64,000 nucleotides of DNA, from positions 10,418,001 to 10,482,000 of the forward strand of contig CM075992.1 in assembly GCA_038087875.1 (NCBI GenBank), in the 5' to 3' direction. A model generated the notes under the pieces. The model was not told the origin of the DNA and ran no database searches. It worked only from the letters and a program-made list of their open reading frames with translations. Of this stretch, positions 2,988-57,859 are shown piece by piece. Origin of the DNA: Malacoraja senta. Its lineage: Eukaryota. A program made the position numbers and the translations under genes. Numbering within the stretch: position 1 is the stretch's first letter; the number at the start of each line of letters is the position of its first letter.

Positions 2988-3005
2988 CACACGCACACAC
3001 ACACA

Positions 3006-3051
<46 letters not shown>

Positions 3052-5940: not shown

Positions 5941-6110
5941 AAAAATGTAAGATGGCCAAAAATCACAGGAGTAAGTGGTTGCGTTTTTTTTTCTAAAATC
6001 AATATACAGCGCAAACAGGAAGTGGTCAAGTTTAAACTTTTAATTATATAGATAAAGTGTGACCCGTGGGCCCCGTTCCCCAACGCAACATTCCACCACT
6101 CACCCATCAA
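5941..6110 (-). mobile_element. Helitron-like termini: a 5' TC end at 6052 abutting a degenerate 3'-end segment
   Basis: ttatatagat at 6044-6053 resembles ttatgtatagat at 27773-27784. The segment gacccgtgggccccgttccccaacgcaacattccaccactcacc resembles 25355-25483. Confidence 0.45.
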
Positions 6111-6366: not shown

Positions 6367-7438
6367 TGTCAAGTCAAACTGTAATGAAAGGTATTACCTG
6401 CCTCCAAGATGAAGGGGGAGGAGTATTATGTATGTAATATAATTTGTGTTACCGGGCTCCAAGTTAAAGGGGGAGGAGTGTCAGGTATGGGATAATTAGG
6501 ATAAGTAATTGGTGTCTTGTGTTGTCTGGGGCAAGTACGCAGGAGCAAAAAAGACAAGGCGGCGTCCTGCAGTAAAGAAGCTTGTATGATTCCTCCCGTG
6601 TCCGAGCCTTTTATCAAGACTGTTCAAAGCATCCGAATACACAACAATTGACGACGAGGATAAAAGAACGAAGATAAGAACAAGGTCAGCAAAAGAATCG
6701 AACACAAAAGTTAAAAATACAAGTTGTATTTGGAAACAAGTGGAACAGCACCAAGCCAAATGGTATTGAATGTATCCAGGGCTGTGCAGCCAACAGCCAA
6801 GCCCAAGCAGCAGCCACAGACGTCGAGTGGGGGCCTAGTACCGTGAAGGCCACGGGCAGGTCCGGAAAAGCCACCGACAAGAGGCTGAGTCTTCAGCCCA
6901 ACTGGGAACAGTCAACCCGGTGGGGGGGAGAAGCAGAGAAAGCCCGGTCGGGAGCAGAGTCAGCCCGACCGTGAACAGAGAAGCGGATATAAGCCGAGTT
7001 CCGCCCGGGGCTTTAAAAAAGGGCACACAACACCGGAAGCGAGGAAAGGACGGACGTTGACTTGAGGCTAAAACTTGAACAGTATAATCTAAGAGACTGT
7101 CCTAAAAACTGCCGCGATCGCCAGCGAAGGCATTCAGGATTGATTATAACAGCACCCGATTGGCTGATTATCTATAGCACCCGTTTTCACCTGCTACAAG
7201 ACTAAACTGTTAAACACCTTAAGACCTACAACATCCAAATGCCTTCAAAGTAATGGCTGAAGCAATAAATCAAGTTAAACTGTCAATTGATTGCTGAATT
7301 AGTCAAAATAAAAGGAGAAAAAAAAATTAAAAAGGAGTGGTTTGGTCATTGAGTGAAATCCAGTTCATCATCTCGGGGTGGATGAATCAGATCCCTTTCA
7401 AGCGGGGAATCTGCACAAAAACATTAGAAGACTTGACA
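6367..7438 (+). repeat. 5' LTR (1072 bp)
   Basis: Direct repeat of 13663-14691 joined to 19211-19356. Confidence 0.95.
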
Positions 7439-7504
7439 GTGAAAAACTGCTGTGACCAGGAGATCTGGAAACATGGAAAAGAAACAGTTAAGTCAAGATA
7501 AATC

Positions 7505-10500
7505 ATGGCAGATGAAGTTACTCGAAAGTCAGCTGAGCAGCTGAGGTGGAGAGGACAACGGCAAAACCGGCATTCTCTCGTCTTATTAACAGCATCATTA
7601 GAAACCATAAAGAAATGTCTGAAGAGGAGCTCAGGAACAATTTCAACAAACTCATGCAAGAGGCCGAAAAAGTGATGGAAGCCAATGACGATGTGGAGGC
7701 TGGACTCATTGCCGAGCTGGAGGCGGAGCTGGACGCAGATGAGGAAGCTGTGTTAACTGAACAGCAAAAAGCCAACCTGGCAAAGACTGCAAAGGAGTGT
7801 GAGTCGAAACTAAAAGAGGTCAAAGGGCTCATCCAGGACACTCTATGGTCAAACTTTGGAAATTTTGAATTATCCATCTCACTACAGACAGCAGATGGTG
7901 CATGTGAATTTGCTGCTGCCACCGCACCATCAAATAGCAACCAAGAAGCATATGAATTCATGCTTAACCACCTGCAGAAACTGGTAGAGACTGCAAAGGA
8001 GACGTACAGTCGGTGCAAACGTTGGGTCCCACTGGATGAGCAAGACAGCTTCCAGAAACACCTAAGAACACTCGAGCTTCTCGTCCCCAAGCTGGTTTCC
8101 AGGAAGACTGACTTCATACAGGCAAGAATAAAGAAGGACGCTGAAGGATTAGCACAAGCGGCGAATGCTTTCAATTATCCTTCACCAGCCATCAGACTGA
8201 GACCCAAGGCCCTTCCTAAGTTTACTGGAAACAAGCGTGACGTTTATAGATGGAGGAAGGATTGGGAAGCACTGCAAAAGCAAGGTGAACCCACTGGATC
8301 AAATGAGGTGAAGAAGGTTCAATTGCTGGACAGTCTGGAGGACAAAATTACAAGAGACCTCCGCCTAACAAGTTATAACACTGCAGATGATATCTTTCAT
8401 GTCCTAGAGAACCGGTTTGGAAATCAAACAGCTATTGCTATTGAGATAGTGGAGGATCTTCAGAGAATTCCACCTGTCAGAGGACATCAGCCACGTAAAA
8501 TAGTGGAATTAATTCAAGCTGTGGAAAAGGCGCTTAAGGACATGATCGATCTCGGAGACACAGGCGCTATTAAAAATCCACTGATGACAAAATCAATTGA
8601 AACCAAGCCTCCAGAAACACTCAAAAAGGAATGGCTGGTTTATGTAGCTGACAAGAAGAATGCTGTGGCACCAGAGAAGCGGTTGGCCAGTCTCTTGTCA
8701 TTTCTCAAAGAGCAGGAGAGTAATACGAACAGCTCGAGCAACTGAGGGACGAGGAGCCGAGTAGAAAGGAAACTCGGACTGAACCAAGACATGCCAGAAC
8801 CAAGTCTACCAAGTCAGGAAAGGACCACACACGTTGTGTAGTCTGTGGTGACGTATAGCATAAAATAAAGCTGTACATCTGCAAGCAGTTTCGAGGGCTA
8901 AAGCTGACAGAGAAAAGAGCTGCAGTAAAGAAGTTGGGAGCATGCAAAAAGTGTCTTGAAGTTCATGATGATGGTTCATACTGCAAACCTGCATATCTGT
9001 GTAAAAATCATATCTGCAAGGATGAACAGATTCCTGAGCATCATTATTATCTGCGCCCCAATTATGAGATGAGAAAAAGCAGTGTGGATCAGAGAAGGAG
9101 TAAATTTGGTCCAGAGGAAGGTAAAGGCAAAAATAAATATACAGTGGACCAAGATTTTTTTTTTAGCAAACTTCCACCAGAGTTGGCAAAACAATACCGA
9201 GATGTGTTCTCCAACACTGCATCAAGAGCCTTCAACACTGCAAAGCAGCAGCCAAGCCTCCTAAAAGAAGGTGGACTGCAAGAGCACCCAGTGATTATGA
9301 TTATTCTGGAGGTCGTAGCAAATGCTGGACAAAAGATTGGGACATTAATTGACTTGGCTTCAGATACCATCTACATAACTCACAAGGCTGGGAGGAGACT
9401 GAACCTTAGGAGTGAAGACATCACGCTTATCTTCCATGGAGTTGTGGGGATGAAGGTCCACGTAGAGACGCGGCGCTACCTTCCAAAGATCCGAGTGAAG
9501 TCTCCCAAGGGCACACTCAAGTCGCACCAGTTAGTTTGTTATGGATTGGACAGCATTGCAGATGTTCACAAACATGTGACACCACAGCAGCTGCAAAAGT
9601 TCTTTCCAGATGTCCCACTTGATGAACTTGTGACAACAAAAGAGATACATTTGCTCATAAGCCATAGAGAAGGTCAGCTAGCGCCTCAGAGGATTAGAAC
9701 TGTTGGAGATCTAATTCTGTGGGATGGACCATTGGGAAAGACTGTTGGAGGTTGTCATCCTGAGCTGTTTGAGAAGCTTACCATGTCAGCCCACATGTCC
9801 AAAACACACTTCGCAAGATCAATGAGAGCAGCTGCTTTAAAGTATGAGGAGCTCACTGACGCAGTCCCTGAGGAACTTTCACCAAACGAACAGGTCGCCG
9901 TCAAAGTCCAGAAGTCACGTACATCAACCGCCAATCGGGACTTCTTGGATTGGTGGAAGGGGGATAGCATTGGAGCAGCATGCGAGCCAAAGTGCGGGTG
10001 TTGCCGCTGTGGAAACTGCCAACCAGGCGGAAAAGAAATGACTTGCTGAAGAGAGAGAGCTCGAAGTGGTAAAGGAAGGCCTCACCTACGTAACAGGAGA
10101 CCGTCACAGTAAAGACCCACATTGGCATGCTAGCTATCCTTGGCTGGAAGACCCAGCTTCTCTACCAAATAATAAAAGGACAGTGGAAGCCACATTTCTC
10201 AGCACGGAGAGGCAGCTATCCAGAGAACCTAAATGGAAAAGTGCCTACAGAACTCAGTTGCACGACATGGTGGACCGAAAGGCTGCAATCAAATTGTCCG
10301 AAGACATGATTGCAAACTGGGAGGGACCAGTGTGGTATGTGAGTCACCTTATTGCTCCAACCCCCCACTCTGTCACGACCCCAGTGAGACTATTGTGGAA
10401 CAGCAGCCAAAAGTGCAATGGTGTCAGCTTAAATGATTTGCTGATGAAAGGTCCAGATGTCCTCAACCAAATTCGCGCCGTCCTCCTCAGATTCAGAGGC

Positions 10501-13500
10501 GGAATCTATGCTGCTCTGGATGACATAAAGAAGCTGTATAACTCAGTCTGGTTGGAGGACCGTGAAGTACACTTACACAGATTCCTCTGGCGAGATTCCG
10601 AGGACGAGGAGCTGGGAGAGTATGCTATCACAAGAGTGAACATCGGAGACAAACCTGCGGGGTGCATTGCACAGTTGGCAATGCGTGAGACTGCTAATCT
10701 TCCTTCTTTTACCCACCTCAAGGATGAGCAGCAAGTACTCCAGAAAGACAGCTATGTTGACGACATCCTCACATCTCACAACAGCCTCGACCAGTTGAGA
10801 ATCATCGCAGCAAATGTGGAACGAATCCTGAAAGTTGGTGGGTTTGAGCTCAAGCCTTGGGTTCTGTCTGGCCAAAGTGGGAGGAAGGAGGACAGTAATA
10901 CTTTAAAGAAAAGCAAAACAAAAACCATGATCCTACCAAACCAAATGCACGATGATGATAACAAGGCACTTGGTCTGGGCTACATTGTTGAAGAGGACAT
11001 GCTCCGCGTTATGGTGGAAATCAATTTCTCCAAGAGAAAGGAAAAGATGCGGCTTGGTCAAGGCCTTCTACAAGAGCAAATCAAAACTCAGACGCCAAAT
11101 CCCCCAACAAGAAGAGACCTTCTCAGTCATGTAGCAGGGCTGTATGACCCCATCGGCACAGTGGCTCCTGTTAAGCAAAACGGAACGATTCTAGTACGCA
11201 GAGCTTTCCAAGAAGCAAAAGAGGGAAACTGTTCGGTCAGAGACACATGGGACATGGCACTCTCACATGGACTCAGCGAGGATGCAATTAAGCTCTTTGA
11301 AGAGTATGTACAACTTGGAAAAGTCAAGTTCGTCGGGGCACTGACTCCCTCTTGCTCCGCAACTGAACCCTTGGGAATCACCTTTTCTGACGGAAGTGAG
11401 CACACCTACCTGAGATGGTGATGTACCTGAGATGGGATTCAGACCATGGCCCAATTGTCAGACTTGTGGAATCCAAGGCCAAGTTAACTCCCTTGGACCA
11501 CAGAGGAGACGCTGTTAAAGCAGAGATGTGCGGAGCAGTGTTCGCCTCACGCTTGAGGAAGTATTTCGAGCTACACAGTCGATTTCAAGTGGAGAAGTGG
11601 TATCATCTTGTGGATAGCCAAACAATCCTTGGTGCAATACAGCGAGAAAGCTACGGATTCAGACATTCTCCGCCAATCGGATTGGATAGATTCCATCAAG
11701 CACCAACATTCAGGACTGGCGGTGGATTCCTGGCCCACAAAACATCGCTGATGTAATCACCAGAGGTGCCAGCCCTCAAGACCTTGATCAGTATTCGGAG
11801 TGGCAAAATGGACCGACGTTTCTGGTGTTGCCTGTGAGTGAGTGGCCAATAAAATCAGCTAAGGAACTGGCTGCCAATGCCAGAGAGGACATCGAAAAGT
11901 TACAGAAGAAAGCTTTTGTTGCAGCACCATCAAGAGCCAAAGTAGAGAAACAAGAAACGGAACCCACAAACCCAAAGAGACCACCTGCAGGGTCAGCTAT
12001 TCAGAACATTGTTGATTTCAAGCGGTTCAGCATTCTAACTAGACTGATCAAGACAGTCGCATGGGTTTGGAGAGCAGCGAAGAGGTATCTTGGCAAGGAA
12101 AAAGCCCTAAACGATCCACAGTGGGGGAGGCCATCTCTTTGACAGGAGTCAGTACAGTAAGAGAACGAGAAAATGCTCTAAAATACATTTTTGTGCTGCG
12201 CAATTGGGCACAACTTTCCAAGCACCACAACGGATCGACTGGTAGCCTATAAAGGCCAAGATTCTGGGCTGATGGTTTGTGGTGGCAGAGTGCAGAGATT
12301 TGAAGAGGATAACGTTGCTGTTCCCATCCTGCCCGTCGATGCCTGGGTGTCCATGCTGCTAGCCCGGGAGGCTCATAGGGAGAGTCATGACGGAGTGGCT
12401 GGGACCTTGCTTAAAATGAGAAGAAAGGCTTGGGTCATAAAAGGAAGGAGAATTGCTCAAAAAGTCGTTGATCACTGCATAATCTGCAAGAAAGCAAAGG
12501 CAAAGAAATGTCAACAAGTAATGAGTGATCTGCCGCCTGAAAGAATTGAACCTGCTGATCCTTTTGAGTTTACGACAGTAGACCTCTTTGGACCATACCA
12601 CGTACACGATAACGTGAAGAAGAGGGTAAAACTCAAAGTCTGGGGAGTTGTCTTCAGCTGTATGGCCAGCAGAGCCATCCACACAGAGTTAGTCAACACA
12701 TTATCAAGTGAAGGGTTTCTGATGGCTTATCAAAGATTCACAGCAATCCGTGGTCACCCCAAGAAGATCTGGTCAGATCCAGGCACCAATTTTATTGGCG
12801 CAAAACCAGTCTTAGAGGAGGAACTATATAGATTTTTGGACAACCTGGACAGAGCAGCTTTGGAGGAGAACGCAGCTAAAATTGGAACAGAGTGGATGTG
12901 GAAAATCCATCCTGCTGATTCTCCACACAGAAATGGCGCTGGGGAAGCCGCTGTGCGTGTTGTGAAGAGAGCGCTCCAAAGTTTTGGTAAATAATCGTCA
13001 CTCAGTTATAGTGAGTTTCAGACAGCTCTTTACATGGCAGCCAACCTGTCAAACGAACGTCCGATCGACGCCAGCATACAAAGCCGGGAAGACTGCGTTC
13101 AGTACATCACACCAAATACTCTTCTGCTTGGCCGAGCATCTCAGTGCGGAGACATCAAGACTTTTGACATTTCCAGCTACCCCTACAAAAGACTTAGAAC
13201 AATGCAGTATGAGGTGAACACGTTTTGGAAGAGATGGAGCCAACTCGCCTTCCTAACTTGTTTATAAGGAGCAAGTGGCACACCACTCAGAGAAATGTCA
13301 CCACCGGAGACATTGTCTGGTTAGGTGACCAAAATGCACTGAGGGGGCAATTCAAGCTGGGCAGAGTCGTCAGCTCCAATCCAGACCGCAAAGGCATCGT
13401 GAGAGACGTTAATGTACGGATCTTTCCAAGTTACTCCATTCCTCTGACAAGGGGTTTGAAAGGAAGGGCAAGGCATTCCACTCAGGGGAAGGAGAGGATC

Positions 13501-13617
13501 CAAGCCACGATTGCTCACAGGGATGTTAGGCTGCTGGTTGTCTTGATTCCAGTAGAAGAACAAGACAGCAAATGCATCAGACCAAGTTCAAACCTAGACT
13601 TCAAAGTTTGTCTTTAA
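7505..13617 (+). pseudogene. BEL/Pao gag-pol polyprotein, broken by stops and frameshifts
   Basis: Gag LPKFTG..Y.W motif, Cys/His knuckles (CKKCLEVHDDGSYC), protease LIDLASD, RT YVDD, Pao RNase H (YDPIG, FSDGS, DSQ), and integrase HHCC, DLFGP, SDPGTNF. Confidence 0.95.
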
Positions 13618-14691
13618 AGCGTTGATCTCCCAAGTGGTTCCATTGGAAGATCGAGTGGGAGGTGTCAAGTCAAACTGTAATGAAAGGTAATACCTGCCTC
13701 CAAGTTAAAGGGGGAGGAGTATTATGTATGTAATAAAATTGGTGTTACCGGGCTCCAAGTTAAAGGGGGAGGAGTGTTATGTATGGGATAATTAGGATAA
13801 GTAATTGGTGTCTTGTGATGTCTGGGGCAAGTACGCAGGAGCAAAAAGACAAGGCGGCGTCCTGCAGTAAAGAAGCTTGTATGATTCCTCCCGTGTCCGA
13901 GCCTTTATTCAAGACTGTTCAAAGCATCCGAATACACAACAATTGGCGACGAGGTTAAAAGAACGAAGATAAGAACAAGGCCAGCAAGAAGAATCGAAAA
14001 CAAAAGTTAAAAATACAAGTAGTATTTGGAAACAAGTGGAACAGCACCAAGCCAAATGGTTTTGAATTGGCGCCAAAAAGAAAAAAATGTAGGAACGGGA
14101 AGCAATAGCACAGGGAAGAGCTTGGAAATCAAGCAGGGGCAGTAAGGGTCACCAAGCACGGTGTCAGCTTACCTGGAATGTATCCAGGGCTGTGCAGCCC
14201 ACAGCCAAGCCCAAGCAGCAGTCACAGACGTCGGGTGGGGGCCTAGTACCGTAAAGGCCACGGACAGGTCCAGAAAAGCCACCGAAAAGAGGCTGAGTCT
14301 TGAGCCCAACTGGGAACAGTCAACCCGGTGGGGAGGAGAAAGCAGAGAAAGCCCGGTCGGGAGCAGAGTCAGCCCGACCGTGAACAGAGAAGCGGAGATA
14401 AGCCGAGTTCCGCCCGGGGCTTTGAAAAAGGGCACACAGCATCGGAAGCGAGGAAAGGGCAGAAGTTGACTTGCGGCTAAAAACCTGAACAGTATAATCT
14501 AAGAGACTGTCCTAAAAACTGCCGCGATCGCCAGCGAAGGCATTCAGGACTGATTATCTACAGCACCCGATTGGCAGCCAGTTATTCACCTGCTAAAATA
14601 CTAAACTGTTAAATACCTTAAGTCCTACAACATCCAAATGCCTTCAAAGTAATGGCTGAAGCAATAAGTCAAGTGAAACTGTCAATTAATT

Positions 14692-17600
14692 ACAAAGGCT
14701 ACGGAAGTCTTTAGAATTCTAGCCACGTTAGTGTGGCTACCACTAACTACACTAATTGTAGATGTAGTTCTTTTTCTTTCACCCTATACTAATCAACTCT
14801 ATCACTTTTTTCACTTTAAATATTTTTATAATTTAATGTTTGAATGGAAAAATAAGACTAATACAAGGAGATGTGTTCGGAAGAGCGACGTATATGATTT
14901 TAAATTCATCTATTCGAGGTTCGGGAGTAGGGTCAGGTTCTCTGTGTTGTACTTTCTGCTCGGCTATAGACCACCTTAGAAACAATATGCAAGATGTTAA
15001 TATGACAAGAGGGGGTCAGGGAATAACATTTTGTAGTTGGAATGTCAAGGGAATCAATGAACCAATTAAAAGAGGTAAAGTTTTGGCACATTTAAATTTA
15101 ATCAAAACAGATGTAATATTTCTTCAAGAAACACACCTTAAAAAGGAATCTCAACATAGACTTAAAGCTAAGTGGATCGCTGAAGCATATCATTCCTCCT
15201 TTTCCCACAAGTCCAGAGGAGTTGCAATATTAATTCGTAAAGGAATACCTTTTACGAACTCTTCAACAATAGTGGATATTGATGGTAGATATATTATACT
15301 AGTTGGAGAGTTAAATGGAGAACAAGTGATTCTTCTGAATGTATATGGGCCTAATTTCGATAACCCCATGTTTTTTAATAAAACATTTAATAAAATTCCA
15401 GAATTTACACAATATAAATTAATAATTGGAGGAGACTTCAATTGTACATTAGATTCATACTTAGATAGATCATCAAGGCAAAAAAAAGTAAAATCCCAAT
15501 CAAGTGTATTATTAAATTCATTTATTAATACCTCTAATATTAAGGATGTCTGGAGAATAGAAAACCCAACTGGACGAGAATATTCATTTTACTCACCAGT
15601 ACATAAAACATACTCAAGAATAGATTATTTTTTAGTTGACTCTACGTTTACCCCATTTATTTATAATTTAAAATACCATAACATTATAATCTCAGATCAC
15701 GCACCTGTAACATTCATGATTAAATTGAATGGAATGTCCGAGAAACAAGCATATTGGAGATTTAACCCACAAATTTTGAATGAAAGATCATGCCAGGAAT
15801 ATATTATTAAACAGATTCAAATATTTTTTGAGGTAAATGACAACCCTGACACACCTACTTCTCTTATGTGGGAAACGTTTAAAGCGTATGTTCGAGGTAC
15901 ATTAATTTCTGCTCAAGCATTTTATAATAAAGAGAACAGGATTAAGCAACAAACATTGGAAAGCGAAATCAAGCAACTAGATATAGAAAATGCGAGAATG
16001 CCATCTACTTTAAAACATAATAAAATTGTTGTATTGAAATATAAATTAAATAAAATGTATTCAGAACAAGTAATAAAACTTTATCAAAAAACCAAACAAT
16101 TACATTTTGAATTTGGAGACAAACCACAAAAACTATTTGCACGTCAGTTACGAAAAATGGAAGGGGAAAAAATAATTCATAAAATTAGAACAGAGACAGG
16201 AGAATTATTAAAAATGCCCAAGGACATAAATGATAGATTTCTCCAATACTATTATAACCTTTATTCAACTAAAACAGTAGCACAACCAGAAGGAATAGCA
16301 GATTTTTTACTAAAATGTAATTTAAAAGGTTTAGATTCAAACGATAGAGAATTATTAGAAAGGGAGATTACGATAAAGGATATTGAAGAGTCTATTGGTT
16401 CTTTAAAAAATGGTAAAGCAGTAGGACCAGATGGTTTAGGCTCCGAATTTTATAAAAAAATTTATGATTTGCTTTGCCCACGTTTACAAAGACTGTATGA
16501 ATATATCTATACTCAACAGAAACTTCCAGACACTTTAAATGAATCTATAATAACACTTATTCCTAAAGCTGATAAAGATCCGGAAGACCCGGGATCATAC
16601 AGAGCAATTGCACTTTTAAATACAGATCAGAAAATATTAACTAAAATACTAGCGCATAGATTAAGTACAGTGATGAATAAATTAATAAACCCTGACCAAA
16701 CAGGCTTTATTCAGAAACGGTATTCATATTATAATCTAAGAAGATTATTTAATATTATATATTCCAAGAGAATTATTAACGAAGATCTAGCAATAATCTC
16801 ACTTGACGCTGAAAAAGCATTTGATCAGGTGGAATGGTCTTATTTATTTTCGGTGATGGAAAATATGCAGCTAGGGAGAAATCTGTACATGGATAAAACT
16901 GTTATATACAAATCCCACGGCTAGAATACTTACAAACCAAAGGTTGTCATCTAAATTTAGCCTATCTAGAGGTTGTAGACAAGGATGCCCGTTATTTCCA
17001 TTATTATTTGCGCTTGCTATTGAGCCACTGGCAGAAAGAGTTAGGGGGCATCCGGAAATACATGGGTATAACACAAAGGACACGGTGAATAAAATTTCTC
17101 TATACGCAGATGATGTACTAATTTACGTTACAAAACCAGACATTAGTATTCCAAACTTATTAGAGCTAATAACCCAATTTGGTTCACTTTCAGGATACAG
17201 AATAAATTGGAATAAAAGTGAAATTATGCCAATAAGGGAACATAACAAACAGATAATACAACAATTTCCATTTAAAATAACAAATGAAAAATTTAAATAT
17301 CTAGGTATTTATATAACTAAGAGATATACATCATTATTTAAAGCAAATTTTCCCCCATTACTGAACAAACTACATAAGAATATTCAATACTGGAAAACAC
17401 TTCCTATCTCAATGGTTGGCAAAATTAAAGCTATAAAAATGATTTTTTTACCGCTGATTTTTTTTACCGCAAATATTTATACCTTTTTCAGACAATTCCG
17501 ATATATCTGACAAAAAACTTTTTTAAAAAACTGGACTCTATTGTTAATGATTTTATCTGGGATTATAAGAATCATAGGATAAACAAAAGACACTTGTGTA

Positions 17601-19193: not shown

Positions 19194-19443
19194 GAAACTG
19201 TCAATTAATTGCTGAATCAGCAAAATAAAAGGAGAAAAAAATAATAAAAAATAAGTGGTTTGGTCATTGAGTGCAATCCAGTTCATCATCTCGCGGTGGA
19301 TGAATCAGATCCCTTTCTAGCGGGTAATCTGCACAAAAACATTAGAAGACTTGACAGTCACACTCTCTGTATCTCCCTCTATCTGTTTCTCACTCTCTGT
19401 CTCTCTCTCCTGTTTCTCTTTCCCAGTCTCTCTGTCCCTCTCT

Positions 19444-19621
19444 CAATAGACAATAGACAATAGGTGCAGGAGTATGCCATTCGTCCCCTCGAGCCAGCAC
19501 CGCCATTCACCGTGATCGTGGCTGATCATCCCCAATCAGTACCCCGTTCCTGCCTTCTCCTCATACTCCCTCATCCGTGCTCTTTAAGAACCCTATCTTG
19601 CTCGTAAGAACCTATCTAGCC
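19444..19621 (-). mobile_element. CR1-type LINE 3' end
   Basis: Reverse complement of 20395-20548, with a (CTATTGT)n tail. Confidence 0.8.
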
Positions 19622-19950
19622 CTCTCTCTCTCTGTCTGACTCTCTCTCTATCTGTCTCTTTATGTCTCTCTCTCTGTCTCTATCTCTTTCTGTCTCTCTC
19701 TCTCTCTATCTCTGTCTCTCTGTCTCTGTCTGTCTCTCTCTGTCTTTCCGTCTTTCTCTCTATATATCTGTCTCTTTGTCTCTTTGTATCTTTGTCTCTC
19801 TCTGTCTCTCTCTCTCGCTCCCTCTCTTTCTCTCTCTCTGTCTGTCTGTCTCCCTTTCTCTTTCTCTCTCTCTCTCTCTCTCCTCTCTCTATCTCTCCCT
19901 CTCACTCTCTTCGTCTCTCTCTCTGCCTCTCTCCCGTTGTCTCTCTCTCC

Positions 19951-20026
<76 letters not shown>

Positions 20027-20150
20027 GCCCATCTATCAATCTCTACGTCTGTCATCCCTTCGCCTCTGTATCTCCCTCTGTCTTTCTCTGTTTCTGGCTC
20101 TCTCTCTGTCCCTCTCTGTCTCTCTCTCTCTGTCTCCCCCTGTCTCTCTC

Positions 20151-20548
20151 TGCTGAGAGAATGGAGCAGCTGGGATTGTACACTTTGGAGTTTGGAAGGA
20201 TGAGGGGGTCTCATTGAAACATATAAGATTGTTCCCGATGTTGGGGGAGAACCAGGGGCCACAGTTTAAGAATACCGAGTAAACCATCTAGAACGGAGAC
20301 GAGGAAAAACCTTTCTCTCCCAGAGTGGTGAGTCTGTGAATTCTCTGCCTCAGAGGGCGGTGGAGGCAGGTTCTCTGGATGCTGTCAAGAGAGAGATAGA
20401 TAGGGCTCTTAAAAATAGCGGAGTCAGTGGGTATGGGGAGAAGGCAGTACTGATTGGGGATGATCAGCCATGATCGCATTGAATGGCGGTGCCTGCTCGA
20501 AGAGCCGAATTGCCTACTCCTGCACCTGTTGTATATTGCCTATTTTCT
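20151..20548 (+). mobile_element. CR1-type LINE 3' fragment
   Basis: Encodes ERMEQLGLYTLEFGRMRG, typical of the CR1 ORF2 C-terminus, followed by a CR1-like 3'UTR. Confidence 0.85.
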
Positions 20549-20660
20549 ATTATCTCTCTCTCTCTCTACCTCTCTTCCTCTCTGTCTCTCTATCTATGTT
20601 TGTCTGTCTCTCTCTCTGTCTCTCTCTGTCTATTTGTCTATCTCTCTATTTCTCTCTCTC

Positions 20661-21497
20661 CGGAAGTGGCGGCGCTGTCGAACAGCAGCGGCTCGCCTGC
20701 AGTCCGTCTGTTTTTACTTTTGTTGTTGTTTTCTTTTGGCCTGTATTAGTTAAACTTTAGTTTATTGGGTTGTGTATGTGTGGGGTGGGGGGGTGAAACT
20801 TGATTTTTGTCTCTTCCTTCGGGGGAATGCGACTTTTTCTTGTCGTATCCCCCTTCTCTGCCTCCGTCTGCGTCGATGCCTAATGGCGGAGCTGCCGGCC
20901 TCCAACTCCAACTGCAAGCGACCGACCTCGAGGCTCCGGAGGCAGAGCCAGGACTTACCAGCGCGGGGCTGGCCTGCTTCGGGGCTGCGGTGGCGTTCCG
21001 GCGGTGGCGACCGAGAACACTGGTGGCGACCTGAATCCGGAGGCTCGGCCACGGGCCTGGTGGACGACATCGTCGGGAGCTTGCAGGTCACAGGTGGGTG
21101 ACATGTTTTTCTGGAGCTCCCGCAACTACAGCTGCGTCCGCTAGACTGGAGGGTGGCAGCTTCGGCAGCTTCGGCCACCCCGGGCCGCGCAGTTTCAACC
21201 GGCCCGTCGCGGAGCACGGATTCGGCCGCGGGATTCACTTACCATCACCCGGCGGGGTCACAACATCAGTAGCCTGGATCGCTCAGGCAGAGGAAGAACA
21301 AAGCGGGAAGAGACAGAGGCTTTAAGACTTTTGCCTCCATCACAGTGAGGAGGTGCCTGGTGAACTCACTGTGGTGGATGTTAATTTGTGTTTATTGTGT
21401 GTTTTGTTATTTATATTATATGTATGACTGCAGGCTACGAAATTTCGTTCAGACCGAAAGGTCTGAATGGCAAATAAAGGAATCTCTAATCTCTAAT
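20661..21497 (+). mobile_element. GC-rich non-autonomous retroelement, copy S2, (CTCTAAT)n tail
   Basis: Head GGAAGTGGCGGCG...CGCCTGCAGTCC, then T-rich and G-rich spacers and hairpins. The 3' end has a stem-loop TTCAGACC-GAAA-GGTCTGAA, then AATAAA and a short tandem tail. Confidence 0.75.
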
Positions 21498-21605
21498 TTC
21501 TCTCTCTCTCTCTGTCTCTCCCTTTGTCTCTCTGTCTCTCTCTCGCTCTCTCTCCCTGTCACTCCCTTCTCTCTCTCTCTCTGTCACTCTCTTCACTCTC
21601 TCTCG

Positions 21606-21692
<87 letters not shown>

Positions 21693-22646
21693 TCCCTCTT
21701 TACCCAACCTCTCCCTCTCTCTCCATCTGCGTCTACTTTCTCGAGATCTGCCTTTGTCCCTCTCTGTCTTTGTGTGTGTCTCTCTGTCTCTCTGTCTCTC
21801 TATCAGTCACTCCATCTATCTTTCTCTCTGCCTGCCTCTCTGTCTCTCTATCTCTGTCTGTCTCTCTGTCTCTCTCGTACTCTCTATCCCTCTCTCTATC
21901 TATCTCTCTCTCTCTCACGATGGCTCCCTCTCGGTCTCTGACTCTTTGATCCTGTCTTTCTCTCTCTGTCCCTCTGACTCGGGGGGGGGGGGGGTGTTGA
22001 CGTTTTGTGTTTGTGTCTGTGTCCGCGCTCGCGCTTTTTTCGCGACAGACAGTTTTTTAATGTAATATGACGCGTTGCGATCATCTCCGCAACACACCCC
22101 ACAAGGAAAATTCTAGAATTGTTTTTGTAAATGAAACCATTCCCTTATTCCACTACCCGCACAATGAAATGGGGACACCCCCCATCCAACCCCCACAAGT
22201 AAAATATCTTTGCTTTTTAGTAAATGAATACTCTCCCCTATTCCAGCCCCCACAATGAAAAACATCCTCCCAGGAAATATTATAGTCTAAGTGAGAATTA
22301 CGATCCCAGATTTGCTGCTAAATGAGATTCCATTGTGATGTAATAGTGTTTGTATAAATGAGATCACATTGTGTCCTCATACCAACCAACTGGCTGTAAT
22401 TCTCACAACACCTGTCTCAAAGTGAGATTTGTAAAGCTAGAAATGTCAATAACTTGTAAAATATTACATCAATCTGAACAAAACTTGACACAAACCACCA
22501 GAGGACGATTATGTATAAAAAGGGTGCACACATTTTACCGCTATTATGTGCCGTTTTTGCGTAATTCCGGAATCACTCGAAAAAACACGCATGCAGGCGC
22601 ATACCCACGCACACACGTATAGAAACAAACAAGATGAGAATTTTTC

Positions 22647-22708
22647 AGATAGTTAGATAGATAGATAGATAGATGGATAGATAGATAGATAGGTAGATAG
22701 ATAGATAT

Positions 22709-22754
<46 letters not shown>

Positions 22755-23063
22755 GGATGGATGGATGGATGGATGGATGGATGGATGGATGGATGGATGG
22801 ATGGATGGATGGATGGATGGATGGATGGAAGGATGGATGGATGGATGGATTAACGGACGGACGGACGGACGGATGTATGGGTGGATGGATGTATGGATGG
22901 ATGGGTGGATGGATGGATGGATGGATGGATGGATGGATGGATGGATGGATGGATGGATGGATGGATGGATGGATGGATGGATGGATGGATGGACGGAAGG
23001 ACGGACGGACGGAAGGACGGACGGACGTACGAACAGACAGAGAGACGGGCGGACAGGCAGACA
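22647..23063. repeat. Compound microsatellite (GATA)n-(GGAT)n-(GGAC)n
   Basis: Direct reading. Confidence 0.96.
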
Positions 23064-23259
23064 GAAAATAATAGTTCTGAATCACAATTACGCAATATGG
23101 AGAAATGAACGGCGGCTTTTCAAACGGGGGTATATAGCCTGGTATTATGTGGTTTGCAGCGAAATAAGGGAGAATAAATCAGTAGGACACTCGTATAGAT
23201 ATATCCCCAAAATCTGATGGAATCTATCGCAAGTGCCTAGGAATGAAAAATGGGAGGAT

Positions 23260-27783: not shown

Positions 27784-28337
27784 TATAAGATATATGCTTA
27801 TTTGTTCACTTGCATGTTTGGTCATATATTCCATTGTTTTGTCATCGACCAACTATTGTTGCTGTAGAGTATTCTGAATTCCATAAAATCTTTCACTTTC
27901 CACAATCTATTCGTCTTTATTTCAAAAAAACAAATGTTCCAGCGTCGTTTTTAATTTATCTTTGCTCACCTTCGACTACGGGCAGTGTGCATCGGGGAGA
28001 GTATGTGAGCCATGTTGCGAAACATTTTTTATATATTACATTACTCAATGGGAACTTGGTCGTTGCATGTTTGGTTCATTTGTCCATCCGCACTGAATGA
28101 ATGCAGAACACCTGACGTGGATCATGTCGCGCTTGGTACTACCGTGACCTACATGATTGGTTTTCTGATGCTCAGCAGAAAACCGAATATTGCCAGCACC
28201 TATTAGAAGCTAGCTGCAAAATATCACCAATCAAACCAAGATCACAAGGAGAGAACGGTATAAATACATTGTCTTCCGAAGGGTCCCCACCAGGACTTTC
28301 GATCATTAATTGCCTATATTTACCATGTGAATACATT

Positions 28338-28338
28338 C

Positions 28339-28405
<67 letters not shown>

Positions 28406-28439
28406 TGTGTGTGTGTTTGTGAATGTGGCTGCGTGTGTT

Positions 28440-28485
<46 letters not shown>

Positions 28486-28513
28486 TGTGTGTGTGTTTGT
28501 GAATGTGGCTGCT

Positions 28514-28577
<64 letters not shown>

Positions 28578-28650
28578 TGTGTGTGTGTGTGTGTGTGTGC
28601 GTGTGTGTCTGTGAAGCTGTGTTTATATGTGTTTGTGTGTGTGTTTGTGG
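28338..28650. repeat. (GT)n microsatellite
   Basis: Direct reading. Confidence 0.96.
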
Positions 28651-29616
28651 TTCCAGCTCTCTCAATGCATCACATTATATGTAGTTCATTAAAGGCTCTC
28701 TTCAGAGAAAATTGTCCAAATCTACTGAATCTCCCTTTGTAAATGAAAACACCTACCGCAAGTAGCAGTCTGGTAATCCTACTCTTCATTCGCTACCAAG
28801 CGTGCATATGTTTCCTGTAATGGGTAGACCAGGACTGCACATAATATCCCGAATACGCACTAATCAAATTCCAATGGATCTTCACCATGACGCCCTAAAT
28901 ATTATACGGTTCTATTAAGGGTCTCCTGCAGGCTTGGACTTGCCACCAGATCCTGACCCAGATCTGTCAAAGACCAGTCTGTGCACCAGTGTCCATAGGT
29001 TAAACAAAGTCACGCACTGTCGTCGTCCATATAACACCCTGGTGGGGAGAAGGAAAACGCCAAATGCAAACCTCAACTGCCTTGGGACTACTATCTTATT
29101 CAAGAAAGGTGAAGACTGGATCAGGTGGAATACGGGAAAGAGACCACCATTTGGCAGTCGAACGGGTAGTAGGGTGCACCCAGTAAAGCACATTGGAGCG
29201 TAATTAGGGTCACAATGTTCACGTAGTTGACATCCACTGCATTCTTTTTTTTTTTTGTTGAAAATATTTTTTATTGGAGATAAGTACACAACCTATTTAC
29301 ATCATTACAGTCTTACATTTTCAAATTGATAATATTGTCAATTATTATTACATTGTCTCCAATACCTTTTGCCTTTTTTTTTAAACTAAATAGAACTAAA
29401 GAGATAGATGAAGTAAAGAAAGAAAGAAAGAGAAGAAAAAAAAAAAAAAAAAAAAAAAAAATAATAAAAAAAAATAAATAAATAAATAAATAAAACCAAA
29501 AAAAGGAAAAAGATAGTTAAAGAAGAATGGAAAAATTTATTAAAATAAAAAACTTCATTCGAGATATATTCGTACATTTCTAAGTATAGCATTTCAACCA
29601 TTCTTTAGCCCGAGTG

Positions 29617-33431: not shown

Positions 33432-33735
33432 ATTGTTTCTAAGGTGGTCTATAACCGAGCAGAAGGTACAACACATAAAACCTGACCCTGCTTCCGAACT
33501 TCAGATAGATGAATTTAAAATCATATACATCGCTCTTCCGAACACATCTCCTTGTATTAGTCTTGTTTTTCCATTCAAACATTAAGTTATAAAAAAAATT
33601 TAAGTGAAAAAAGTGATAGAATTGATTAGTAAAGGGTGAAAGAAAAAGAACTACATCTACAATTAGTGTAGTTAATGATAGCCACACTAACGTGGCTAGA
33701 ATTCTAAAGACTTCCGTAGCCTTTGTAAGAAAAAA

Positions 33736-34231: not shown

Positions 34232-35883
34232 AGAATTTACATTACTCCTTAGGAGTCAAGGACTAACAGGACCGCCAGATCTAAAATGACCTTTAAAGTT
34301 CTTTTAAGAGCTTTAAGGACATTCGAAAACCGAAATGGACGGAGGACATTGGAGAAAACCGTGATCTTTGTATTTTTTTTTAAAACTTTTTTTTAACTAA
34401 TCATTATTATTATCTGTATATTCATATCTAACTATATATGTAACAACTAATACTTATTAAATATCCATATTACCACTAAAATTATTAACATTAACATTTC
34501 TCATAAAAATTTAATACTGTATATGATTGATAACAATGATTAATAATTAATAGTCTTCGATTAACGTAGAAATGAATTACATACTTATATTATATAGGAG
34601 GATATGCAAGAGGTAAATTAGCCTACGTCATAATAAAGCTTGACGGTTTTTCTCTTTATTTTTCAATTTAAAATTAAATTTATAGATTTAGCGAAGAAAT
34701 TAATATGATATGTAGAGAATAATAACGTTGTGAATTTTTGCTGTTCTTGAACTTTTCTGCAGGGATACGTGCTTATGTATGTATGCACATGGGTATATAT
34801 ACATATATATATGTATGTATATTGTGTGTGTGTATGTATGGGTATGTATATAAGTTTGTTACTCCCAAAGAAGTTATTTGAATGTTAGAAATAATCTTTC
34901 TTTTTCTTCGGGCACGGAGCTGGGAATTTTTTTTTCTTACATCCACTGCATTCTGACCTATCGCCCGCCGTCTTGCCACTGGATCCAGATAAGCCAGAAG
35001 GAGAGAGTGAGGCTGACGATTTGCGCAACTTTCCCTCACTTTAATCCAATTCAAGCGCAAGTAAACTTGGCGAGGCAAGATCATCACAGGAACATGTGCA
35101 TCAGAGAGGAGGCGCACCGCAGAGGCTCGGAGGAAATGCGCCGCGTGCAAGGCTCGAGTCACTTCAACTTCTACTGCGGCACCCACCTAACTGTATCCCG
35201 AGCCTTCCGGGCCCGGATCAGTCTCGCCTGTCACCTCCGGACCCACAAACAAAATCACTGAGGTCATGGACTACTTCGACTACGAAGGACGAACAAAAAA
35301 ACACACACATACACTCAATGCCCCTGGCATGAAGGCAAGCCAATTATACGACCTCTTTAACACACTATCTACCTATGCTGCCACCGTCAGTGAGCTACAA
35401 TCTTACACCACGAGATCCCTCTGCAAATCAATGCTGTTGAAGGTCTTGCCATTAACTGAATACTTTCTGCTTACCTTTTACCTCGCAAACGTTCCCTTTA
35501 CATTTCATCTCGCGTCCATCTCCTATTTGTCCGTCCACATTTACAGCTGGTCAATAACATGCTGTATTTTCTGGCTGTAGTCCACACTGTCTGCACTCCT
35601 CTAGTTTTGGTCTCGTGGGAAACCTTACTCAGCAGCCCATCTAAGTTTACTTCTAGGTAAATGTTTTTTTTCATTTATGTGTAAGTCACTTGTATCTGAC
35701 AAAATCGACAGGTTTGTTACAAAAGCATGTGTATAATAGTTATTTCCCTCAACTAACAGCTTTTCAGGTCCGCAAAAAGCTCAAACAAGCTGAAAACGCA
35801 TCGCGACGTGGAACAAACGCATGGGGATCGGTATGACATTTGCATACCCCTCCCTAATCGCGTACATTTCCTCTTTAAATTCC

Positions 35884-38709: not shown

Positions 38710-39660
38710 AGGAAAGAACAAGGAACTTTTTTAATTTTTAAGATGGAGCTGGAACTGGTGGATTTTTCAGACAGTTACTGAGCTTATCTGTCTGGAATGT
38801 GTATTTGAGAACATTGTTTAACCTTGAATGAAAAATTCATGTACAAGGAACAGGGACGAGATAATATTAATATCTAACTATTATATGCTAATTACAATTA
38901 ACGAACTAACTTTAACAAAACTAATGACTTGTGAGTGTGTGTAGTAAATATGAATAATCATGAATAAACCATTGCTTATAAATTGTAATTAACCAAAATG
39001 TCCATAACATTACTAACGTTTTTTTTTTCTTTCTTTTTGAGTGGGAACGCAACATAAATTTGGAAAAAATCCAGGAATGAGGTTAACCCCTCGGTACCTA
39101 CTTGTAGGGTAGCTGGTTAGATAAATTGTTACGGTACAAATACTTATAGAAATGAGAATAGGTTGTGGTTTATATTTGGATTTGGGGTTTAATTACATTA
39201 TTTATTTACTTTTTAATATTTTACCTTTGCGTATTTTTTTTTTTTTTTTTTTTTGGGGGGGCTTTTTACTAACGCAGTTTGATAAAGTTAAACAAGAATA
39301 AACAAGATATGAGACGGTTTGTTGTTTTTGTACGAGGTGTTAATAAGGGATTGGGGCTCAATGTAAAATAACATCAACGGAAGTCTACAATTCTTACGCC
39401 ACCTTAGGTGGCTATTTGTCTTTAAGGTACCTGCTTTTAGATACCTTAATTTCACTTTAAAAAAAAATACTATACAAATTTGTATTTACTTAGTTTGTGT
39501 TAAATTAATTGTAAATCACAACTTTTCTTGCTTTATCTAAGGCACTTTTGGAGAAGGAGATGTAATGTAAACTTTTAAAAATTGCAATGACCACCCAACG
39601 CCCAGAACACGGAGGTATTTGTTTGCACCATATGTTTCAAGAATATTACTTTGATATACA

Positions 39661-42600
39661 ATGCAAGACGATAGGCAAATAAAGAATGGAGGAATCACAT
39701 TCTGTAGTTGGAATATAAGGGGTGACACTGAACCAATAAAGAGGGGTAACATTTTTGCTCACCTAAAATCTTTGAAAAGCGACATAATTTACTTGCAAGA
39801 AACTCACATGAAACAGGAAACACAAATGAGATTAAAGGCGAAGTGGATAGGCCAAACATATTATTCGTCATTTACTTCTAAATCTAGAGGTACGGCTATT
39901 CTTATTCGAAAAGGTATACCGTTCAAATTAAAGAATACTATATCAGATAAAGAGGGAAGGTTTCGGGAGAAATTTATGCTACCCCAAAAACTATGGTAAA
40001 TATTTACGCTCCGAATTTTGATAACTCTCAATTCTTTGAGAAAATTATAGATATAATACTGGAGTTTAATTATCAAAATGTCATAATAGGAGGGGATTTC
40101 AACTGTGTTTTAGATCCATACTTAGACAAATCAGCAAAACAAAGAAGGAGTAATATAAAATCTAAGACTAGTGAATTTCTAAATACATATATAAAAAATA
40201 CTAACATAACAGATGTATGGAGATCTGCTAACCCAGCAGGAAGGGGATACTCGTTTTATTCTTCGGTACATAAAACATACTCAAGAATTGATTTTTTTTA
40301 GTGGATAGGAAATTAATGCCATATATAATTAACCCAACTTACCATATTAGTAGTATTTCTGATCACTCTCCATTGACTTTTTAAGTAAAATTTGAAGGAA
40401 TGCCGGGAAATAATTTTTTTTGGAGGTTTAATACATATATATTAAATGACTTACAGGGTTATCAATATTTGAAACAACAAATGATATCATTTTTTGAGAT
40501 AAATGATACACCAGGTACCTCACCTTCTTCAATATGGGAAACTTTTAAAGCATTTATTGGAGGAATTATAATTTCATATGAAATTTTTCAAAATAAGAAG
40601 AATAAAACAGAACAGATTCTGTTAGAACAAGAAATAAGACAGTTAGAGTTAGATAATGATAAAGATCCCACTATAGATAAACATAATAAGATAATACCAC
40701 TGAAATTTAAACTTAACCGAATTCTCTCAACAAGAGTAATAAGATTATTCCAAATTACAAAACAGGAACATTTTGAGTTTGGTGACAAACCACATAAGCT
40801 GTTCGCGTGTCAACTGAAAAAACAGGAAAAGGAAAATACTATAAATAAAATTAAATCCGAGAATGGTGAATTACTAACACTACCTAAAGATATCAATAAA
40901 AGATTTGCTCAATTTTATCAAAATTTATACACATCAAAAACCAAAACAGAAAATAGTAAAATTACAAACTTTTTAGATAAATGTAATCTACCAAAACTTG
41001 ACTTTTTGGAACAAGAAGAACTAGGAGCGCAAATTACAATCGAAGAAATAGGTGAAACAATAAAGTCGCTGAAAAATGGTAAGACACCGGGAACAGATGG
41101 TTTTAGTAATGAATTTTATAAAAAGTTTCATGAGATAACGACCCCCTGTCTATTTAATTTATATACTTACGTTTTTAAAGAAAATAAACTACCTGAAACG
41201 TTAGCAGAATCAACTATTACGCTTATTCCAAAGAAAGATAAAGATCTAGAGGAACCGGGCTCATATAGAGCTATATCACTTTTAAATACAGACCAGAAAA
41301 TTCTAGCAAAGACTTTAGCTAGAAGACTAAGCAAATATATTAGTAAATTGATAAACCCTGATTAAACGGGGTTTATACCTAAAAGATATTCATTTAATAA
41401 TTTGAGACGCCTGTTTAATATAATGTACTCACATAAAGTGGAGGAAGAAGACTTAGCAATTATTTCTTTGGACGCAGAGAAAGCATTTGATCAGGTAGAA
41501 TGGCAGTATTTATACAAAGTATTACAAAAATTTAATATGGGAGAGAATTTTATTGCATGGGTGAAATTATTATATGATAAACCGATGGCAAGAATATTAA
41601 CTAACAGCATGTTATCTCAAAATTTTCAATTATCAAGGGGTAATAGGCAGGGATGTGCTTTATCACCCCTGCTATTTGCCCTTATGATAGAACCTCTGGC
41701 TGAAAGTATAAGAAGCCATCCGAATATTCAGGGTTATAATACTAGGGACTCAAATAATAAAATTTCATTGTATGCAGCCGATATTTTGTTATATATAACA
41801 AATTCACAAACGAGCATACCAATGTATTAAATTTAATAGAGGAATTTGGATCCTTTTCTGGATATAGAATAAACTGGCACAAAAGTGAAATCATGACGTT
41901 AAAACCTCAAGAATCTACACACTTATTGAAATTCCCCTTTAAAATAGCAACAGAAAAATTCAAATATTTGGGTATTCAGATTACTAGAAAACATAAAGCT
42001 TTATGCAATGCCAATTTTATACCCTTAATAAATAAACTTAATATAATGATAACATTTTGGAAAACACTCCCTTTATCATTAATAGGCAGAATAAATGCTA
42101 TTAAAATGAGCTTCCTACCACAGTTATTATACCTATTTCAATCTATACCAGTATATGTACCAAAATATTTTTTTTCTAAACTGAACGCTAATATTACTAA
42201 TTTTGTTTGGGATTATAAATCACATAGAATTAAAAAAGAACACTTATGTAAACCAAAAGATGTCGGGGGACTTTCACTCCCAAATTTTTTGTATTACTAT
42301 TGGGCAATACATATCAAGAATATAATTCACTGGTTGTATAGTTCAACTCAACAGACAGAATGGATAAAAATGGAGAAAGAGGATTGTTATCCTTGTAATA
42401 TAGGAACAATCCTCTTCTCCCCGAAAAAAATGAACAATACAATATATAAGAAAAACCCAATTATACAAGATACAATAAGAATATGGAAACAAATAAAATT
42501 AGCCTTAAAATTAAGAAACCTATCATTGTTAACACCGATAGCGAATAATCCTTTATTTAAACCATCTATGATGGATAAAATATATAATGAATGGGAAAGT

Positions 42601-56000: not shown

Positions 56001-56831
56001 TGTTTAGTAAGATATTCCTGACATGCTTTTCATTTAAAATTTGGGGGTTAAGTCTCCAATGTGTTTGTTTCTCGGCCATTCCATTTAATTTAATCGTAAA
56101 TGTTAAAAGTGCATGGTCTGAAATTATAATATTATGATATTTCGAATTGTAGTTAAATGGGATGAGCATAGAGTCTGCTAAAAATAGTCTATTCTTGAGT
56201 AGGTTTTATTTACCGGTGAGTAAAATGAATATTCTCGTCCGGTTGGATTTTCGATTCTCCAGACATCCTTAATATTAGTGGTATTAATAAATGAGTTTAG
56301 AAATTCACTTGACTGAGATTTCACTTTTCTATGTCTTGATGATCTGTCTAAATAAAGATCTTGTGTACAATTTAAATCTCCTCCAATTATTAATTTGTAT
56401 TGTGTGAATTCTGGGATTGTATTGAATGTTTTCTTGAAAAACATGGGGCTATCAAAATTAGGTCCTTAAACATTAAGAAGAATAACTTTTTTTTGCATTT
56501 AGCTCTCCAACTAATACAATATATCTACCATCGTTGTCCGCTATAGTTGATGTACTGTATGTTTAAAAGGTATCCCTTTACGGATTAATATTGCGACTCC
56601 CCTGGATTGATCTGAGAATGAGGAATGATACGTTTCAGCAATCCATTTTGCTTTCAGTCTATGTTGTGATTCCATTGTAAGGTGGGTTTCTTGAAGGAAT
56701 ATTATGTCTGTCTTAAGTGATTTTAAATGTGCTAAAACGTTACCTCTCTTGATTGGTTCATTAATTCCCTTAACATTCCAACTACAAAAAGTTATTCCTT
56801 CACCCCCAAATGTCATATTAACGTCTTGCAT
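53017..56831 (-). pseudogene. L1-D ORF2, decayed
   Basis: Same endonuclease and RT motifs as L1-A/B, with multiple stops and frameshifts. Confidence 0.95.
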
Positions 56832-57859
56832 ATTATTTCTAGGGTGGTCTGTTAAAGAGCAGATGGTACAACACACAAAACCTGACCTTACACCCCAACA
56901 TCAGATAGATGAATTTTAAATCTCGTAAATCGTTCTTCTGTGTATATCTCCTTGAATTAAACTTATGATTCCATTCAAACTTAAAATTATAATAAAGTTT
57001 AAAATAAGAAAAGTAATAAAGTAGATGATTAGTAAAGTGCGAAAGAAAGAAAAAAAACTACATCTATACTTTGTGTAGTTACTGTTAGCCACACTATTTT
57101 GGCTAGCATTCTAAAGACTTCCGTACCTTTTGTCAAAAAAAAATACTAGCTCCGTGCCTTCCATTAAAAAAATGATTCAATAACACAATTTCTTGGGGAG
57201 TAAGAAAACATGTTTAAACCAAAGAATTTCATAATCCGTTAATAAGAAAAGTTATTATTCTCAAATTACCATATTAATCTCATATTTATGTATATATTTT
57301 TGTAATCTAAAAATAAAGAGGAAAACCCCAAACCTTATTAATAAATGGCCTAAATTAAATCTTACTGATAGACATATTTCATATAATCATATAATCATAT
57401 TTTAACTGTTTCTACATAAACCAATTAATGTTAGTTATTAATCGTTTGTAATAGTCATTAGTAATGATGGATGTTTATAAATGTTATAAATGTTAATAAT
57501 AATAGTGATATTTAATAATTATTAATAATTAACTACAATATTAAAATATAAATGTAATATATTAGTTATGTAATTAGTAATAATCAGTAATTAGTAACAA
57601 TTAACAATAATACTAAGGTATAATTGTAATGTATCAATTTCACTAGAAAGAAAATTGCTCCACTGTCCTTATCAATTTTCAGTAGTCCTTGAGAGTATAA
57701 CAACTTCCGGTGGCGCTATTGAGGCATAGAGACCAGCGCCTACTAGCTCCGTGCTGAGAAATTAGCTAAATCGGGGAGAAAATCGCGACCTACCTGTGGC
57801 GACTGCACCGGCTGCCTTCAACGAGAGTGTGACGTCATCAGGCACGCGACTCTAGCGGT

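Follow-up and report, generated by a model that had tools for sequence, protein, structure and literature searches.

The literature cited here was available in part, and statements drawn from it refer to those parts. Ribosome shunting in pararetroviruses is defined by its layout, in which a short ORF is followed by a helix, a U/A-rich landing stretch, and a near-cognate start; the peptide and the sequence of the helix arms are immaterial, and codons other than AUG serve as starts where the ribosome lands (PMC5902531, PMC2241666). Weak starts are helped by a hairpin located ∼14 nt downstream (PMC5902531). Stop-start coupling has been described for SART1 and human L1 (PMC5972666). How L1 elements translate ORF2 when the spacer is hundreds of bases long has been raised as a question (PMC3894237, PMC5381506, PMC4072516), and long spacers persist although they lower mobility in HeLa assays. 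Neither a spacer ORF nor a UTR-spacer helix or shunt in L1 was found described in the literature searched, which holds few subscription papers, or in the available parts of PMC3894237, PMC5203782, PMC4072516, and PMC6501411; those of PMC7140322 contain nothing relevant.

Here, we analyzed L1 copies A to D in a window of 64,000 nt from Malacoraja senta (contig CM075992.1), together with related copies elsewhere in the genome. The ORF in the spacer of these elements is probably the last leg of a ribosome shunt, by which a looped-out ORF1 would be bypassed before reinitiation at ORF2.

The spacer frame upstream of ORF2

ORF2 of copy A matches the Pfam models Exo_endo_phos (PF03372) and RVT_1 (PF00078), both above cut-off, as expected of the L1 clade. 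Full copies further show the ORF1 (∼330 to 370 codons) and the 5′ end (GACTTCCGG) of this clade, the latter matching the 5′-end motif of fish/lizard type (PMC5381506, section 9). The Pfam model of the ORF1 C terminus had no matches in the genome and is uninformative. Copy A is truncated at ∼14690 and was inserted where the terminal repeat and leader of a Pao-type LTR element recur (13663 to 14691). That element lies in several pieces at 6367 to 14691 of the window and carries the domains DUF1759, Peptidase_A17, RVT_1, Integrase_H2C2, and DUF5641. Tandem-repeat arrays occupy positions 1 to 3120, 3328 to 5967, 19360 to 23071, and 28336 to 28653, and 278 nt of ORF2 in copy D (53501 to 53778) are duplicated at 57982 to 58258 (99.6%) inside its inverted 5′ part.

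A sequence-only reading of the window had reported a stop-free 95-codon frame that ends just upstream of ORF2 in copy A, is open in copy B, carries a single slip in copy D, and is frameshifted in copy C. All of these observations were reproduced, coordinates included (Table 1), and the inverted piece of copy B reads MLEIIFLFLRARSWEFFFL from 34882. In family C, the corresponding region has 102 open codons, without ATG. The alternative frame, an N-terminal extension of ORF2 that had been described as stopped, indeed contains stops in most families.

Table 1. Window coordinates of the spacer ORF and associated features in L1 copies A to D
Feature	Copy	Position	Strand	Detail
Spacer ORF	A	14692..14979	+	95 codons from the truncated 5′ end, 92 from ACG
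Candidate near-cognate start ACG	A	14701..14703	+	G at −3 and +4 (strong context); putative start
Outer helix, 3′ arm	A	14702..14709	+	Complement of nt 1-8 at the 5′ terminus of the element
Local 7-bp hairpin	A	14720..14739	+	16 nt downstream of ACG
Stop-start junction	A	14977..14989	+	TAG, 7 nt, ORF2 ATG (14987)
Spacer ORF	B	33439..33735	−	Open
Inverted piece	B	34882..34934	+	MLEII ATG (34882), inner-helix 3′ arm (34911-34924), U run (putative landing stretch)
Inverted 5′ end	D	57703..57755	+	Outer arm, position of the three-codon ORF, inner-helix 5′ arm (57743-57755)
Spacer	D	56829..57157	−	Inner-helix 3′ arm (57157-57146), ACG (57124), TAG (56841-56839), ORF2 ATG (56831)
Spacer	C	39347..39663	+	Inner-helix 3′ arm (39347-39363), ACG (39377), TGA (39652-39654), ORF2 ATG (39661)

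The frame is genuine, and most of the L1 families sampled from the genome have it ahead of ORF2. Loci were chosen by endonuclease patterns in genome order and grouped into 19 clusters; eight loci lacking an endonuclease anchor were dropped, and 11 truncated or duplicate loci plus two thirds of the young A loci were removed before alignment. The 19 family representatives were hand-picked once the clustering was known, and for c8 and c9 the ORF2 offset was corrected manually. In 16 of them, the frame is open from the shared position to the ORF2 start (73 to 96 codons). The stop likewise falls close to the ORF2 AUG (−17 to +14 nt) in 16 of the 19, at junctions of the types TAG-7-ATG, TGA-6-ATG, overlaps AUGNNUGA/AUGNNUAA, and, once, UAAUG. 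The three failing families (c16 to c18) are single old, broken copies, and a c18-like family is open in only 2 of 11 copies. One endonuclease pattern alone matches the genome 4815 times, which implies thousands of such junctions. No internal stop interrupts the frame in 149 of the 150 best protein matches, a figure biased by the ranking of matches by score.

Majority sequences of families A, B, D, E, and C measure 276, 276, 282, 279, and 288 nt, respectively, from motif to stop and have no stop in the spacer frame versus 8 to 14 in each other frame. In dinucleotide shuffles, any frame was open by chance with a frequency of 0.003 to 0.004 for these families, 0.009 to 0.02 for c3, c4, and c9, 0.03 to 0.04 for c2 and c15, 0.09 for c8, and 0.24 for c6. 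When the observed substitutions were placed randomly, A stayed open in 7% of the trials with the A-D changes and in 1.5% with the A-E changes, and all indels among A, D, and E are of 3 or 6 nt. The start motif is missing in 14 of 60 unpicked copies; those keeping it are open in 15/24 and 6/22 cases, an equal length of ORF2 being open in 21/24 and 6/22. Contig C1162 of the genome (G000) holds a near-identical second copy of the window's L1s in the same order (L001, L032, and L062), which is probably an unplaced haplotype, so that the two sets are not independent. A metagenome scan with the endonuclease yielded one locus, L231, which is not informative (37% identity, short spacer). The spacers of A and C (L191, L205) contain, within their initial 240 nt, another stop-free frame, of 74 to 78 codons, which is absent in D.

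It had also been claimed that the frame extends to an upstream ATG (MLEII). This ATG is present in the inverted piece of copy B, but of the 28 young A copies that retain the upstream part, just 4 have it in frame; it lies at +1 in 21 and at +2 in 3, since its phase varies with the length of the T run. Family D has a different ATG and family C none, so there is no shared in-frame AUG. Programmed frameshifting at the T run, with translation starting from the MLEII ATG, was considered and rejected, as each of the three phases is represented among the copies and the upstream sequence differs in D, E, and C. Inversion breakpoints of copy B (33735/34940), L186, and L187 map to the U run just 3′ of the inner helix described below, where copy A is truncated too; twin priming or pausing may be favored at this run.

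Conservation of the frame and of its peptide

Stops and frameshifts have been purged from the spacer frame, and the peptide it encodes is not conserved. The earlier suggestion of a small membrane protein fell on the outcome set beforehand: dN/dS is ∼1, with no codon-position bias. Specifically, dN/dS of the spacer ORF is 1.05 (A-D), 1.16 (A-E), and 0.87 (D-E), with ORF2 at 0.08 to 0.10; elsewhere, it is 0.6 to 1.4 in c3, 1.1 in c4, 0.22 for A-B, and 0.24 to 0.29 in c2, with ORF2 at 0.03 to 0.20 in every row except one noisy two-copy row. Pooled substitutions show no periodicity over the codon positions (65/51/60; P = 0.42). Fixed changes (48 synonymous, 122 nonsynonymous) were indistinguishable from private, postinsertion ones (69 and 173; P = 1.0, pooled over nonoverlapping pairs), the ORF2 control giving a P of 3e-25. 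The synonymous changes of copy D that had been cited as a coding signal are not in excess. Families c3, c4, and C use different reading phases on aligned DNA, c3 and c4 being in phase over only 59% of the columns. The hydrophobic stretch is equally strong in other frames because the strand is U rich, and the apparent T..W motif (ATLVW / PT..W) is the hairpin stem, TEV being the pairing arm.

At the nucleotide level, A and D are 80% identical over the spacer-ORF stretch, compared with 71% for ORF1 and 56% for the 5′ spacer. The A-D dN of the spacer ORF (0.215) resembles that of ORF1 (0.19) with a depressed dS (0.205 versus 0.94 in ORF1), indicating that the stretch is constrained as nucleotide. 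By the same figures, amino acid constraint could hide under RNA constraint, and the spacer ORF might encode a small, fast-evolving, membrane-associated third L1 protein, a reading that the low omegas of A-B and c2 and a relative, P0001 (78%), sharing the MLNII..RARSWE start would favor. We nevertheless regard such a protein as distinctly unlikely: those omegas are not significant versus private mutations (P = 0.051 and 0.21), codon periodicity is absent, frames swap between families, no AUG is shared, the hydrophobicity is not specific to the frame, and no Pfam family is matched. P0001 was the one match among two candidates for peptide homologues elsewhere, such ORFs being rarely called. Family c2 (L142, L159, and L168), with the lowest spacer-ORF dN/dS and a C-x-x-C-H/R-H stretch, is the sole family in which a peptide role remains plausible.

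Predicted pairing of the 5′ UTR with the spacer

The frame starts at a motif that is reverse complementary to the 5′ UTR of the same element, ∼1.9 kb upstream, a mirror relation first apparent in the inverted copy L186. Neither this pairing nor the three-codon ORF at the 5′ end was part of the sequence-only reading. Two nested helices are predicted. The inner one (11 to 20 bp) pairs UTR nt ∼40 to 58 with a spacer site 19 to 29 nt 5′ of the ACG and ∼330 nt upstream of ORF2, and the outer one pairs nt 1 to 8 with the bases covering the ACG. In 10 of 12 copies, cofolding of the UTR with its own spacer segment outperformed shuffled sequences (z, −3.5 to −11.9), the gain being −15 to −34 kcal/mol, and the paired window or an overlapping one ranked first of 74 to 161 windows in 9 of the 12. 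Families c8 (z, −0.3) and c6 (z, −2.0), represented by one old copy each, paired weakly. Global minimum free energy folds (2.3 kb) contain both helices in three of six elements, the exceptions being c2, c3, and c4. The predicted pairing is thus consistent with the stable long-range basal helix of a CaMV-type shunt.

Sequence variation points to the same structure. Across A, D, C, c4, and c9, column 12 (within columns 9 to 14) holds a compensatory G-C/T-A pair; a compensatory change from T-A to G-C also occurs within family C (L203), and G-U pairs are found in both helix arms. A covariation permutation returned a P of 2e-5 over nine rows, a value that overstates significance because the rows are related; the underlying pair table is without c2, c8, and c6 and has the c3 row misanchored. 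In family c2, a different 5′ end is accompanied by a matching, different spacer arm (16 bp). The motif contains CGGAAGT, which we take to be ETS-like, and it could be imagined as an inverted promoter copy (ETS plus GC-box-like) driving an antisense or subgenomic RNA, with the open frame as its leader. The 5′-end motif is a factor site according to PMC5381506 (section 9), but G-U-compatible and compensatory substitutions are characteristic of RNA, c2 alters both partners to non-ETS sequence, and a leader requires no open frame, all of which renders a promoter origin very improbable indeed.

The helix might instead serve reverse transcription or RNP assembly, the spacer ORF being reached after ORF1 by reinitiation and only throttling, or relaying to, ORF2. 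Human L1 does use termination-reinitiation (reviewed in PMC5972666), and copy B, L186, and L258 have inversion or deletion breakpoints close to the helix. Nonetheless, we find this role very unlikely, as the 5′ part of the spacer holds 12 to 13 AUGs over the 500 to 900 nt between ORF1 and the frame, which argues against scanning from ORF1, and the candidate start lies exactly at the helix exit in unrelated families. The predicted pairing gains support from L258, 1 of 30 unselected 5′ ends, in which the whole loop is missing and the breakpoints map 2 nt inside the helix base and 7 nt past it; this single event would be expected from a reverse transcriptase jump across the stem. Two targeted patterns (A/B and c3) for further loop deletions retrieved 0 and 0. 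Other rearranged copies are L146 and L137, internally deleted with the 5′ end joined to late ORF1 or spacer, and L246 and L248, with short deletions of the 5′ helix arm. In addition, a stretch of 241 nt within ORF1 of L191 (1187 to 1429), ending in AG, is skipped in contigs that two studies obtained from one related organism, a splice or deletion variant.

The 5′ end also carries an ORF of 2 to 5 codons at nt 16 to 22 in 26 of 27 full 5′ ends (its start position reads ATT in copy D and ATG in L032). Genome-wide, 2565 of 2808 5′ ends have TRR at codon 4, and among the matches listed (100 of 2565) codon 4 is always a true stop, with codons 2 and 3 varied. Its stop lies 7 to 15 nt upstream of the inner helix, as in the shunt layout. 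Mammalian L1s lacking a long spacer have such an ORF too, inside a YY1 site (read by eye), which weakens its link to a shunt, so that brevity alone, sparing ORF1, may be what is required of it. Helix and frame could be real while the helix delivers cap-bound factors or forms part of an IRES, with the short ORF incidental (YY1/ETS) rather than the take-off site: the outer helix would bring the capped end beside the ACG, and IRES programs flagged most long spacers (PMC5381506). In these elements, however, the AUG and the codon-4 stop are kept with free middle codons, all three stops are used, and the contexts are not YY1 sites. Furthermore, the spacer stretch alone folds unremarkably (z, −0.75), and an Rfam search of L191 (740 to 3101) gave no IRES match at the gathering score, with subthreshold matches on simple repeats only and no known IRES fold. 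Cap delivery or an IRES is hence unlikely.

Proposed route to ORF2 and known systems

According to the shunt-and-relay reading, a cap-loaded 40S subunit would translate the 2- to 5-codon ORF (nt 16 to 28) and stop just before the helix, whose formation in vivo is suggested by complementarity and covariation. Some ribosomes would unwind the helix and proceed to ORF1, whereas others, by analogy with CaMV and RTBV, would shunt ∼1.9 kb to the U/A-rich stretch and start at the ACG or AUG, probably aided by the hairpin 16 to 20 nt downstream. Elongating ribosomes ignore AUGs and would therefore reach the ORF2 AUG despite the 2 to 6 AUGs of the last 250 to 290 nt past the landing site; after termination near that AUG, they may reinitiate at a low rate. 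As in a landing site, 18 to 29 nt of U/A-rich sequence precede an ACG, or an AUG in c3, with AAG in one sub-lineage of C. The earlier idea of an upstream ORF with its stop coupled to the ORF2 start fits as to coupling, but ribosomes probably do not enter at the MLEII ATG or by reinitiating downstream of ORF1. The calicivirus-type TURBS motif, UGGGA, is absent upstream of the junction in 9 of 10 families, a point against this route, in which reinitiation would follow an ORF of ∼90 codons. An AUG-free megabat spacer reduced retrotransposition (PMC4072516), which favors the shunt; a pig L1 with CMV in place of its 5′ UTR jumped weakly in HeLa cells (PMC6501411), a result that we count against the shunt.

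The U run is followed by ACAAAG in A, B, and D, and could act as a splice acceptor joining an upstream exon to the frame. This acceptor is missing in C, c3, c4, and c15 to c18, and neither the 28 young A copies nor the 30 sampled 5′ ends include a spliced one, making splicing extremely improbable. Contigs from four runs of relatives cover the spacer ORF on L191; no joint at an AG after the U run appears among the matches listed, although contigs cannot show absence.

Shunt plus relay would, if true, explain how a long-spacer LINE-1 makes its key enzyme, predict ORF2 synthesis independent of ORF1 translation, and carry short-ORF shunting beyond viruses into LINEs, with an entire gene being jumped. 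The layout also suggests that constructs with foreign 5′ ends misjudge these elements.

Sequences of other vertebrates were read by eye from the supplement of PMC5381506 (spacers whole, other sequences to 400 letters). The first-AUG ORF has at most five codons in zebrafish (17/17), frog (11/12; the twelfth has 10), lizard clade 2 (3/3), and mammals (12/14, not mouse and rat), and mostly 7 to 11 in the spacer-less lizard clade 1. A clear UTR-spacer complement was seen in at least 7 of 17 zebrafish elements (1B, 7C, 10B, 13A, 13B, 13C, and 16B), 4 of 12 frog elements (11, 17, 18, and 29), and all 3 of lizard clade 2, where the outer helix follows the different 5′ end; in elephant and hyrax it spans 8 to 9 bp only. 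An open frame reaches and overlaps the ORF2 AUG in five of seven translated spacers, including lizard AC17 and AC18 and zebrafish 7C. The elephant frame has its AUG at 196 (∼88 codons) and that of hyrax at 169 (∼85 codons); the pig frame is open given one slip in an A run, and opossum has none. It is conceivable, if somewhat doubtful, that a shunt over ORF1 followed by a sequence-free relay ORF is ancestral to vertebrate L1s from cartilaginous fish to afrotherians, human and mouse having lost the spacer, with ORF1 as the relay and the three-codon ORF as a relic.

Among known systems, primate L1 ORF0 is likewise a short extra ORF in L1, but it is antisense, located in the 5′ UTR, and primate specific (PMC5203782). 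The vertebrate long-spacer L1s with a predicted IRES (Boissinot and Sookdeo 2016, PMC5381506) share the element class, the spacer, and the ORF2 question with those described here. In that work, however, spacers were folded alone, no shared structure was obtained, and a dicistrovirus-like IRES was proposed; a spacer ORF, a 5′ short ORF, or UTR pairing was not found described in its available part. Termination-reinitiation in SART1 (UAAUG, as in one family here), human L1, and caliciviruses (TURBS) also places a stop a few nucleotides from, or overlapping, the next AUG, but here the upstream ORF is a dedicated frame of ∼85 to 95 codons rather than ORF1, and a conserved TURBS is lacking. The closest likeness is with the shunt of CaMV and RTBV (also RTSV and prototype foamy virus), in which a 5′-proximal short ORF of free sequence ends just before a long-range helix and a U/A-rich landing stretch precedes a non-AUG or AUG start. 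The two differ in the gap between short ORF and helix (6 to 8 nt there, 7 to 15 nt in this L1), in the host, here a non-LTR retrotransposon, and in the loop, ∼480 nt there and ∼1.9 kb here, with the essential ORF1 and ∼700 nt of spacer. Finally, the L1 described here has a second predicted helix tying the capped end to the start site, and the ORF that would be reached is a neutral relay rather than the product.
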